Assembly (NCBI GenBank): GCA_046581755.1 | Contig: JAYGFR010000283.1 | Coordinates: 1-43,909 of the forward strand | Source: Nitrospinota bacterium | GTDB lineage: Bacteria; UBA8248 | Direction: 5' to 3' | Length of the DNA stretch: 43,909 nt | Shown here: positions 13,610 through 22,720 of the stretch, one piece after another | How the letters are laid out: each line of letters starts with the position of its first letter | Position numbering within the stretch: the stretch's first letter is position 1 | The notes under the pieces: model-generated | The model's input: the letters and a program-made list of their open reading frames with translations, nothing else | What the model was told of the DNA's origin: nothing | The model's database searches: none | Position numbers and translations under genes: made by a program

Positions 13610-14329
13610 TCAAACCAGCGGCTGATAGGCCCAGACCACACGGCCCAGGATCCAATCATCGGGGCTATCCGAGTTCAGGTCGATGTGGACCACGGGCTCG
13701 TCGCGGTTTTCGGGCACCAGCCAGAGGCGGGGCGGCGTCCATTGCAGCCGCTTGAGGGTGCATCCCCCCGAATCGTCCCGGACCGCGTATATTCCGTTTT
13801 CGGCGATGACCTTGTCCCGCCGGTCGATGACCACGACCGCGCCGGGCTGGATGAGCGGAAGCATGCTCCGGCCCATTTTCCGATCCACGCGAACGGCCAC
13901 CAGGTCGGTTCTGCCCGTCACCTGGGAGATGTGGATCAGGGCGTATTCCTCGATCTCCTCGTCCACGATCAGGGCTCTTCCCGCGGCGATGGAGTCCGAA
14001 ACGAGGGGAACGGCGCGGAACTCGCTCTCATCGACACTCCCCGGGCCCTGAATATTTTCCGACATGCGCACCGCCACATCGATGGGCCCGGCCGCCATCG
14101 TCTCATGGGCGCCCTTGCGGCCCATGAGCCAATCCGCCGAAACCCCCAGGGCCTCGGCGATGCGAAGGAGCTTGCCCGCGCTGGGCTCGTTTTCTCCCTC
14201 TTCGTAGCGGACGAGATTCGCCCAGCTCAGGCTGGAGGCCTTGGCGAGCTGGTTGCGGTTCCAGCCACGACGCTCGCGGGCCTCGGAGATGCGTCTTCCA
14301 GTTTCTGAAAATTTCGCGGATTTAGCCAT
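13610..14329 (-). CDS. XRE HTH plus S24 peptidase repressor (CI/LexA-like)
   Basis: N-terminal HTH (RISEARERRGWNRNQLA...RYEEGENEPS...IAEALGVSADWL), IAAG autocleavage site, GRSMLP catalytic Ser, TLKRL catalytic Lys, ILGRVVW. Confidence 0.88.
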   Translation of the reverse strand: MAKSAKFSETGRRISEARERRGWNRNQLAKASSLSWANLVRYEEGENEPSAGKLLRIAEALGVSADWLMGRKGAHETMAAGPIDVAVRMSENIQGPGSVDESEFRAVPLVSDSIAAGRALIVDEEIEEYALIHISQVTGRTDLVAVRVDRKMGRSMLPLIQPGAVVVIDRRDKVIAENGIYAVRDDSGGCTLKRLQWTPPRLWLVPENRDEPVVHIDLNSDSPDDWILGRVVWAYQPLV

Positions 14330-14479
14330 TATGCGAATCGGGATGATCGGCTCCCACGTTTCGGCGGCGGGGGGGTGCACAATGTTTCAACGCTCTGATC
14401 GCTTAAATTCTAACACTTTGCACAAGGGCCGAAAAGAGATGGTACCTCCGAAAATATTCCCGAAAAAATGAAAAATTTT

Positions 14480-20864: not shown

Positions 20865-20963
20865 TCGGCCATTCCTCCTGTCTCGGTCGGATAAATTTCC
20901 ATATCGGATGCCGGGAGGGGTTCTCCCGGATAAAGGGTCTTGCCGGCTGGATTTCAGGGCGCG

Positions 20964-20992
20964 ACGCTAGCACCCCGGCTCCAGGGTGTCAA
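20964..20992 (-). promoter_or_regulatory. Sigma70-type promoter of the M24 peptidase gene
   Basis: Minus strand TTGACA, 17 nt spacer ending in TGc, then TAGCGT. Confidence 0.55.
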
Positions 20993-21063
20993 CAAATTCC
21001 CGCTCGCGCCAAGCCCCCGGCGGCGGTATAATAGGACATTCCACCGCCCACTCGGACGCTCTC

Positions 21064-21912
21064 ATGGGCAGGCGCCGGAACACCCCCGACTTCAAGCGCT
21101 CCAGCCGGATTCACCGGGTCAACCTCAACCCGTCGGCCGAGGAACGCGAGATCACGAAAAAACTCATCGAGCCCGGCCGCGCCGGCGCGCGCGAGGCCTA
21201 CGGCCAAAAACTGCTGAACAGCCTCTGCGCCCGGGTCCGGGTGGCTCCCGTGCGGCTCCATGTCCACGACGTGAACCAGCCCCACAAGAAACACGGCGGG
21301 CGGCTGGCCTACAAGGAATATGGCGCCTACTACCTGGACGAGGAGGTCATCCGTATCGCCAACCTGACGGCGGTGCGGGGCCAGACCGTCGCCGGAAAAA
21401 CGTTTTTCGACACCCTGATTCACGAACTCATGCACCACCTTGACCGGAAACTCCTCAAGATTCCATCCACCCCGCACAGCCCCGGCTTCTACAACCGGAT
21501 CGACGATCTCAAGCGCAGGCTCATGGACGGAGACCCGGATGCCCCCGCCGATGAAAACGGCGGCGGCGGACAGTGGGAGGCTCCTCCAAAGGGCCTGATG
21601 GCCGCCGTCGAGCGCGCGGCCCGAGAGGCCCGGGAGGCGGGGTTGAAATTGGAGGCAAAAGGCGCGGCCTCGGGCCTCACGCTCGGGGCGCGCATCCCGA
21701 GGTGGCCGCGGGATCGGGGGGGGCTATTTTCAACCGGAGAGGATTCGGGCGAAATGGCCGCCGCACCGGCGGCGGGCCGGGCCAAGTCCGGTTCAGGGCG
21801 CCGCGATGGGGGCGGGACCGAATCCGGCAAGGGAGCGCCGCCGCGCCGGGAAGCATCCGCCCCGGCCGGGGAAACCGGGGAAAACCAGTTGACCCTCGAT
21901 TTTGAAGGGTAG
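21064..21912 (+). CDS. SprT/WLM-like zinc metalloprotease-domain protein with a disordered tail and C-terminal QLTLDF motif
   Basis: DTLIHELMHHLD (21421-21435 encodes HELMH), third His in PHSPGFY, Gly/Ala/Arg low-complexity tail. Perfect TATAAT at 21027-21032 upstream of ATG 21064. Confidence 0.7.
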   Translation: MGRRRNTPDFKRSSRIHRVNLNPSAEEREITKKLIEPGRAGAREAYGQKLLNSLCARVRVAPVRLHVHDVNQPHKKHGGRLAYKEYGAYYLDEEVIRIANLTAVRGQTVAGKTFFDTLIHELMHHLDRKLLKIPSTPHSPGFYNRIDDLKRRLMDGDPDAPADENGGGGQWEAPPKGLMAAVERAAREAREAGLKLEAKGAASGLTLGARIPRWPRDRGGLFSTGEDSGEMAAAPAAGRAKSGSGRRDGGGTESGKGAPPRREASAPAGETGENQLTLDFEG

Positions 21913-22027: not shown

Positions 22028-22720
22028 ATGCGGCCAGCAAATGATTTTATCCGAAAGCCGACCGGTCCCATGATGGGCATGTGGTCCTGGCAGTATCTGA
22101 ACATCTGGAAAACCATCAAAATGATCAACAGCAAGCGCGTCAAGGGGTTCTACGAAAGGTTTTCGTCGATTTTTCCTCCGGGCGAAAATTTTCCGGATAT
22201 CGAGCTAAAGGACCTGGAGGGCGCCTCGCACAAGATGTCCGATTATTTTGGCAAAAAACACCTCGTTGTGACGACCGGCGCAATCACCTGACCGCCCTAC
22301 CGGCGGCAGGTGCCGTTTTTCGAGGAATTGGCCGAGAAATACGCGGACCGCGACGTCAAGGTGTTCAACATCTACGTGCGCGAACCGCATGCCGGGGAGC
22401 GGGGCTTCCCGGACATCCAGAATCACGAAAATTACGAGCAAAAGCTCGGATACGCGAAAGAACTGGCCCGGATAAAAAGGATGAAGAACACAATCCTGTT
22501 GGATGAAATGGACCAAAAGGTCCACGAATTGCTCGGGAATCTTCCGAACTTCGTTTACCTGGTCGGAAAGGATGGGCTGGTGAAATACAAGGCCACTTGG
22601 TCCGATGCCGAGTACGTGGAACAACACCTGGCCGAGTTGGTCAACGGCGATCCCGCCTTCGCGGACATGCCGAAAATGGAGCAAACCATCTTCACCAGCC
22701 ATGCCACGACCGACATATAA
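22028..22720 (+). CDS. Deiodinase-like (thioredoxin/peroxiredoxin-fold) selenoprotein, Sec at TGA 22289-22291, 230 aa
   Basis: ORFs 22028..22291 and 22310..22720 are in the same frame. Read-through gives FPDIELKDLEG...LVVTTGAIT-U-PPYRRQ...FNIYVREPH...LLDEMD...LPNFVYLVGKDG, matching the deiodinase GSxTUPPF / YIxEAH motifs. Confidence 0.88.
22302..22317 (+). promoter_or_regulatory. Bacterial SECIS hairpin
   Basis: GGCGGC-AGGU-GCCGUU stem-loop starting at +11 after the UGA. The GCAGGU apical sequence and the spacing resemble the E. coli fdhF SECIS. Confidence 0.75.

Follow-up and report, generated by a model that had tools for sequence, protein, structure and literature searches.

A predicted Wss1/SPRTN-fold zinc metalloprotease with a clamp-type terminal motif in a Nitrospinota bacterium

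Wss1 and SPRTN are eukaryotic proteases of DNA-protein crosslinks. Wss1 has a long tail with short docking motifs (SUMO/Cdc48), and SPRTN carries a PIP box, a possible counterpart of the terminal motif described below. The evolution of Wss1 and SPRTN is said to be treated by Reinking et al. 2020, who may also discuss bacterial relatives. Papers cited here by accession or preprint number are cited for the excerpts available to us. According to these, the zinc site of SPRTN is formed by three His (PMC7213743), and an inactive Wss1-like fold occurs in Tiamat (bioRxiv 10.64898/2026.09.30.754977); excerpts of PMC6219452 were also used for the comparison with known systems. For bacteria, the excerpted PMC13705206 reports no clear evidence of dedicated crosslink proteolysis, and another excerpted study suggests that Lon may help against Dcm crosslinks, with ClpP having no effect (bioRxiv 10.1101/2020.10.27.357855). 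In E. coli, small peptide crosslinks are substrates of excision repair and large proteins are not (PMC13705206, in part), so that a protease that trims crosslinks would be useful. Our literature search, with most subscription papers and supplements outside its scope, found no description of the family reported here or of a clamp-binding bacterial protease, and no dedicated bacterial enzyme that clears protein roadblocks at replication forks.

We analyzed a stretch of 43,909 nucleotides (referred to as the window), which is contig C290 of a host genome of 4.2 Mb with 60% GC. The gene of interest and its features are as follows, with residues numbered by the translated protein:

21004..21032, + strand: putative sigma-70-like promoter, recognized by its sequence, with TCGCGC (21004-21009), a 17-bp spacer and TATAAT (21027-21032)
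21064..21912, + strand: gene for a 282-aa protein, from the ORF translation
21064..21531, + strand: residues 1-156, basic (pI 10.2) zinc-metalloprotease-like core, with a Wss1/SPRTN-like fold and an extra N-terminal helical part according to the predicted model and a profile match
21421..21435, + strand: HELMH, in which H120 and H124 are predicted to bind zinc and E121 to be catalytic, all three invariant in 134/134 aligned sequences
21475..21492, + strand: H-x-x-G-F-Y motif with H138, predicted to be the third zinc ligand; conservation is at least 90% for H138 and G141, and complete for F142
21574..21648, + strand: residues 171-195, a W-xx-PP-plus-helix element in the tail, at 48% mean identity against 15-16% in its flanks, with a helix at 178-195 in the full-length model
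21649..21885, + strand: residues 196-274, a divergent linker, predicted to be disordered (15% mean identity; pLDDT mostly 45-53, without secondary structure)
21886..21903, + strand: QLTLDF, a hexameric beta-clamp-binding-type motif that fits the published consensus (Q275 97%, L276 94% and F280 81% identical in 32 aligned homologues)

A first-pass annotation made from the letters had placed HELMH at 21421-21435, a third His within PHSPGFY at 21475, and QLTLDF at 21886-21903, two residues before the stop codon; translation confirmed all three, as residues 120-124, 138, and 275-280 respectively, the last two residues being EG. The TATAAT box lies 31 bases upstream of the gene start. Of 32 close loci retrieved, 28 were examined for this box, and 24 of them have an exact TATAAT in the 130 nt before the start. 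In RNA libraries, positions 20935-21100 are covered by one contig of 167 bases, which is not proof of transcription; two further runs may be DNA. Comparison by eye of the gene's upstream region with those of recA and lexA, made with SOS control in mind, revealed no common palindrome. The sole lexA match in the genome (L082; G000:C208, about 46790-46850) contains a frame change near its 5' end, so that either the assembly is wrong there or the gene is broken.

When 134 family members are aligned, the invariant positions are H120, E121, H124, D127, F142, and R145. The core is probably an active peptidase. The first-pass annotation had also pointed to an Arg/Lys-rich N-terminus. The composition holds, with 7 Lys/Arg versus 1 Asp/Glu in the first 20 residues, but the region does not extend freely from the domain. 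A motif common to the whole family lies in it, with S13 nearly invariant among the 134 sequences, and the core model shows it as ordered. A basic character is common in the family (pI above 9 in 94% of 139 distant cores); it would be compatible with nucleic-acid binding and does not demonstrate such binding.

The protein is a member of neither curated family, WLM nor SprT-like. Its match to Pfam WLM (PF08325) reaches 12.8 bits against a gathering cut-off of 26 (E 0.13), SprT-like PF10263 gives no match at E up to 1, and, except for the weak WLM match, no Pfam or NCBIfam family was found for it. Among the 134 members, weak Pfam matches are to SprT-like (55 members, best E 1e-4), WLM (35, best E 2.8e-5), and peptidase M76 (29), and NCBIfam gives weak HExxH matches only, in 11 and 3 of 90 members. 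One member has a Trp-repressor match, whose source was not traced among 12 candidates. The nearest ESM Atlas clusters consist of hypothetical proteins, one of them automatically named SprT-like and one with WLM in 11% of its members. Single-sequence searches of PDB and NCBIfam returned nothing useful, and a match obtained with a 32-sequence profile was judged to be due to chance. When the profile of the family was searched against PDB at E up to 10, the sole match was S. pombe Wss1 (5jig, E 0.016), in a segment of about 55 residues that takes in HExxH and the sequence before it.

The full-length model has a pLDDT of 69 and gave weaker fold matches than the core, and the core was therefore remodelled separately. 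The resulting model of residues 1-156, built from 115 sequences, has a pLDDT of 96.7 and a pTM of 0.91. Among 48,161 chains, its top three matches are yeast Wss1 (Z 8.4, rmsd 2.9, 102 aligned), SPRTN (7.7, 3.3, 110), and S. pombe Wss1 (7.4, 3.2, 95), followed by jannalysin (6.9), a YbeY-family protein, selecase, and PprI (6.5 each), CapP (5.9), and ArdC (5.0), where matches within 1 Z are tied and a Z below 8 may reflect a common arrangement. Foldseek likewise ranked Wss1 first (E 0.012, probability 1.00), with no match at E 0.001. These rankings therefore indicate a small zincin that is closest, by a modest margin, to the two eukaryotic crosslink proteases. The fold is almost certainly as proposed, judging from the predicted model, and the SprT/WLM-type assignment of the first-pass annotation is thus borne out, although the protein scores below the curated thresholds. 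The zincin fold with HExxH and a third His expected of a WLM protein is found on the predicted model.

In fold and layout, the protein as modelled works like SPRTN/Wss1. It resembles Wss1 (5xbn, 5ln5, 5jig) as the best fold and profile match, in HExxH plus a third His, and in a small catalytic domain followed by a long tail. It differs from Wss1 in about 36 extra N-terminal residues outside the aligned range, in the position of the third His 14 residues after HExxH, and in a tail that bears a bacterial clamp-type motif where Wss1 has SUMO/Cdc48 motifs. With SPRTN (6mdx) it shares a fold match tied with that of Wss1, H120/H124/H138 at the places of the three-His zinc site, and, if the PIP box is taken as the counterpart, the combination of a protease with a distal clamp motif; unlike SPRTN, it lacks ubiquitin or p97 elements, and identity in the structural alignment is 14%. 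The structural match stops at 6mdx residue 147, and since the protein has one Cys (C55), no SPRTN-type Cys/His zinc-binding subdomain is present. The archaeal minigluzincins (jannalysin, selecase, and abylysin; Z 6.0-6.9) are small stand-alone HExxH domains, like the tail-less family members discussed below, but have about 105 residues, lack the N-terminal helices and the tail, and superpose with a worse rmsd of 3.8-4.0.

The bacterial, DNA-linked zincins among the fold matches raise the main alternative, namely a protease that is activated by DNA and acts in signalling, as IrrE/PprI and CapP do. It would sense ssDNA at stalled forks and cut one specific repressor or replisome factor, and in some lineages the clamp would serve to locate it. 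PprI (Z 6.5, rmsd 3.2, 100 aligned, model residues 10-152) and CapP (Z 5.9) come near Wss1 in the fold comparison, ArdC has the same zincin fold (Z 5.0), and this alternative would account for the optional tail. We know of no clamp motif in IrrE/PprI, CapP, or ArdC. The excerpted PMC7213743 describes the cutting of the repressor DdrO by IrrE, and a Glu as the third ligand in ArdC. These proteins are, however, multi-domain (PprI and CapP have 240 and 278 residues respectively and are larger), and sequence profiles match the family here to Wss1 and not to IrrE, with no profile match to CapP or ArdC either. Instead of the peptidase plus HTH/GAF and cognate repressor of the IrrE/PprI/CapP systems, no conserved repressor or other regulator gene was found beside the bacterial genes, and the HTH/S24 gene of the window lies 6.7 kb off. 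We regard a signalling role as rather unlikely.

Matches to YbeY-family chains (Z 5.3-6.5) suggest a further alternative, in which the zincin fold hydrolyzes a non-protein substrate, for example a nucleotide or nucleic acid near the fork. YbeY has a three-His site without the HExxH glutamate, and the YgjP/Upp family likewise hydrolyzes something other than protein. The strongly basic core would suit such an activity, and the association with DinB_2 described below may hint at small-molecule chemistry. Against this, E121 of HExxH is invariant in 134/134 sequences, the YbeY-family fold matches are weaker, with Wss1 ahead by 1.9 Z units, and YgjP/DUF45 is not among the 25 Pfam families (of 61) listed for the 134 members, and therefore matches at most one of them. 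A hydrolase of this type appears quite improbable.

The second part of the comparison concerns the C-terminus. In the excerpts of a 2024 review, clamp-binding motifs follow the consensus Q-phi-x-[L/M]-[F/L] or Q-phi-x-[L/M]-x-[F/L], QLxLxF is a high-affinity form, and LQLELDF was a phage-display winner for E. coli DnaN (PMC11139829). QLTLDF, which fits the hexameric consensus and lies in a terminus predicted to be disordered, is one residue away from LQLELDF, and resembles the hexameric QLxLxF at the disordered termini of Pol II, Pol IV, Hda, and Pol III alpha (PMC11139829, in part). The word "protease" occurs 0 times in the main text of that review.

A lone match of this kind is weak, since a relaxed match is present in the last 20 residues of 31/7,608 ORFs of at least 150 aa in the same genome. 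Twelve of these 31 were scanned, and the eight with Pfam matches comprise seven non-DNA proteins and one radical SAM protein. Conservation is a different matter: among 78 close sequences (two of which are the 282-aa protein itself), a relaxed QLx[L/F]x[F/L]-type motif is present in 69 and the strict consensus in 23, versus a shuffled mean of 0.6. The motif occurs in 28/30 genomic loci. In one of the two exceptions the gene runs off its contig, and in the other the motif is still in frame behind a stop codon. As a control, 22 neighbouring ORF clusters (some of them shadow frames) gave 0-1 motif matches each. Thus the conservation of the motif, not its single occurrence, exceeds chance, and the check proposed in the first-pass annotation, a constant terminal motif next to a diverging linker, came out in its favour (69/78 close sequences at 15% linker identity), the motif being present also in distant branches. 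On the side of the clamp, R152, T172, G174, H175, R176, L177, P242, and V247 of the host DnaN, encoded at L001:1498-2595, are invariant in 27 sequences, these pocket residues having been paired to the list in the excerpted PMC11139829 by number and residue, without an alignment to E. coli DnaN. We consider binding of DnaN by the QLTLDF-type motif very probable. The radical SAM protein among the relaxed matches (L113:571-1257 (-), G000:C314; cut by the contig end) ends in QLSLF plus three residues, and is itself a likely second clamp partner.

Chance matches at the ends of non-DNA proteins in the same genome would also fit a terminal motif kept for another partner, such as an adaptor, an unfoldase, or the protein's own active site, with the protease unrelated to the clamp. 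Phe-4 and polar position-2 variants are common, which would fit as well; a clamp motif with Phe-4 reportedly occurs in B. subtilis MutS. The gap between strict and relaxed counts above is mostly due to QLSFDF, whose Phe-4 is outside the consensus in the excerpts of PMC11139829. On the other hand, Q at position 1, hydrophobic residues at 2 and 4, F/L at 5 or 6, a free position 3, and both pentamer and hexamer spacing reproduce the clamp grammar published there, and the phage-display winner is only one residue away. We consider a non-clamp partner the least probable of the alternatives weighed here.

Between core and motif, the first-pass annotation had described about 120 aa of low-complexity linker, which corresponds to residues 157-274. 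Residues 171-195 are an exception to this description: their mean identity of 48% compares with 16% and 15% for the linker on either side, 65% for the core, and 67% for the motif. The helix of this element looks amphipathic. Elsewhere in the family, several branches without the clamp motif end in another conserved helix (tails of P0238, P0202, P0185, and P0148), and in a further branch a conserved terminal segment, W-x(8-10)-I-[D/N]-W, replaces the disordered tail (L064-L068, L070, L071, L073-L075, and L078-L081).

The family, large and without a name, comprises at least 4,210 proteins. A profile search returned 616 cluster representatives, mostly about 150 aa long; the larger figure comes from a search with a second branch (about 30% identical to the protein), in which at least that many of 8,000 candidates were scored. 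Tails shorter than 25 aa are the rule, as in 106 of 139 distant representatives; the motif is present in 5/139, or in 5/33 of the distant representatives with a tail of at least 25 aa (shuffled mean 0.37). Among the 120 second-branch matches listed, 70 are short-tailed, 12 are DinB_2 fusions, and 38 have tails of 25-129 aa. In these 38 (among the matches listed), the strict motif occurs in 10 and the relaxed motif in 13 (shuffled mean 0.19), and a looser Q-x-x-[L/M]-x?-[F/L/I], a pattern picked post hoc, in 22/38 (shuffled mean 0.34), although these sequences are kin and the counts are not independent events. The clamp-type motif thus appears again and again at the ends of family tails that cannot be aligned. 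As most members are tail-less, the clamp motif is an optional add-on and does not define the family. The first-pass reading is supported in part: of the outcomes that it named as refuting, neither loss of the motif from homologues nor a fold unlike SprT/WLM was observed, and the proposed substrate, a DNA-protein crosslink or another replisome obstacle, is an analogy.

In a tree of 45 cores (LG+G4; cores hand-picked, one long-branch warning, unrooted), the motif changes six times, with four changes forced by starred branches, and the motif-bearers as one clade are rejected (p-AU 3.1e-5). A quick unrooted tree of 144 cores has four motif changes, only one of them forced on starred branches. As both trees are unrooted, repeated gain is indistinguishable from repeated loss. 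No fused forms turned up among proteins of 413-2,000 aa, although this is weak evidence. The 12 DinB_2 fusions noted above include P0283 and P0290, and a separate DinB_2/mycothiol-transferase-like gene is near the family gene in 19 related loci (e.g., L038:6687-7208). It is possible that the association with DinB_2 reflects a link to thiol or electrophile chemistry.

Within the phylum, the gene is present in 37/51 genomes. A single-copy match was found in 35/41 other genomes of the same taxonomic family (one in two pieces), and the gene is absent from several relatives, including 4/4 small genomes of one genus. In another phylum, 26/93 genomes have family versions, with tails of at most 21 aa. 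The locus is syntenic in the lineage, where its neighbours are genes for an M24 peptidase, dehydrogenases, a luciferase-like protein, a DEAD-box helicase, and HU; none of these neighbours is a DNA-repair gene. No neighbour is common to the distant bacterial loci, no DNA-repair neighbour is common to the 56 distant loci, and a uracil-DNA glycosylase gene is nearby in four related loci only. Gene context is therefore neutral on a role in repair.

Viral loci of the family number 50, some on contigs of 200-380 kb. Neighbours in phage loci include PAPS-reductase-like, ASCH, WYL_2, HNH, and terminase genes, and in other phage loci the homologue is between nrdD/nrdG-like and ssb-like genes (named by eye from sequence). 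One PHROGs family, unnamed, was matched by 3/115 members, and tblastn with one tail-less member against annotated phage and plasmid collections gave no match. On a 165-kb viral contig (L128:902-6694; contig shared with L164), the homologue belongs to a series of small basic genes that immediately precedes the terminase genes; these small genes start with MATR(R/K)K or MATRR, and many end with NG, KG, or QG. MARR/MARK starts are seen in three other loci (L141-L143). The common MATR(R/K) start looks like a signal that would direct proteins into the phage head for co-injection.

These loci suggest that the family might at root be one of phage conflict proteases, serving in anti-defence or host takeover, which some bacterial lineages domesticated. 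The clamp motif would then direct the protease against replisome proteins, foreign or of the host, and not against lesions. Besides the phage neighbours and the copy with the MATR(R/K) start, the patchy cellular distribution would agree with such an origin, as would the jumbo-phage SprT-like peptidases proposed to cut host proteins in the excerpted PMC7824862, whose membership in the family here is not established. Yet the lineage studied here has the gene as one syntenic copy surrounded by metabolic genes, none of the 134 members has a match in PADLOC, and the motif is absent from all phage homologues examined (0/46). We rate this alternative as low as the hydrolase one.

We favor, at a probability of roughly 0.4, a clamp-tethered, DNA-dependent zinc protease that removes DNA-stuck proteins at or behind the replication fork. 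In this mechanism, H120, E121, H124, and H138 would bind zinc and hydrolyze peptides, and the basic core, which alone constitutes most family members, would bind DNA. QLTLDF would dock in the DnaN pocket, with the tail of about 120 residues as a tether that concentrates the protease at forks in some lineages. The substrate would be a protein bound to DNA covalently or trapped on it tightly, which the protease would cut down to a peptide removable by excision repair. Weighing against this reading are the many relatives without the motif, the Phe-4 motifs outside the strict consensus, the middling fold scores with other zincins close behind, the lack of DNA-repair genes nearby, the single Cys, the absence of the gene from several relatives, and the single forced motif change in the larger quick tree. 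Granted the fold, the peptidase activity, and the binding of DnaN, we would give a DNA-stuck protein as substrate about an even chance. The computational case for a clamp-binding bacterial protein of the Wss1/SPRTN fold is good. The broader proposal, namely that bacteria have their own replication-coupled DNA-protein-crosslink protease, in a widespread Wss1/SPRTN-fold family that repeatedly gained or kept a clamp motif, mirrors the SPRTN-PCNA pair, and includes tail-less phage copies, is conceivable but somewhat less than even. As a concrete candidate for such an enzyme, the family offers a domain of 150 residues whose catalytic residues can be named and which, in several lineages, is joined to a clamp handle of six residues. 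Should the substrate be something else, recruitment of a protease by the bacterial sliding clamp would still define a new class of clamp partners, and more than 4,000 proteins of a family without a name would gain their first functional handle.

Two further genes of the window deserve mention. At 13610-14380 (-) is a repressor-like gene (HTH plus peptidase S24) among metabolic genes, with no prophage evident in a Pfam scan of the window. The next gene downstream of the protease-like gene, 22028-22720 (+), contains an in-frame TGA (22289-22291) in the context TGAIT-TGA-PPY, beyond which the frame continues to 231 aa. This TGA is conserved in 25/25 related loci where the pattern was found, and the product has a weak AhpC-TSA match. 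The gene likely encodes a selenoprotein of thioredoxin-like fold, and the UPP context at its TGA is, we presume, deiodinase-like.
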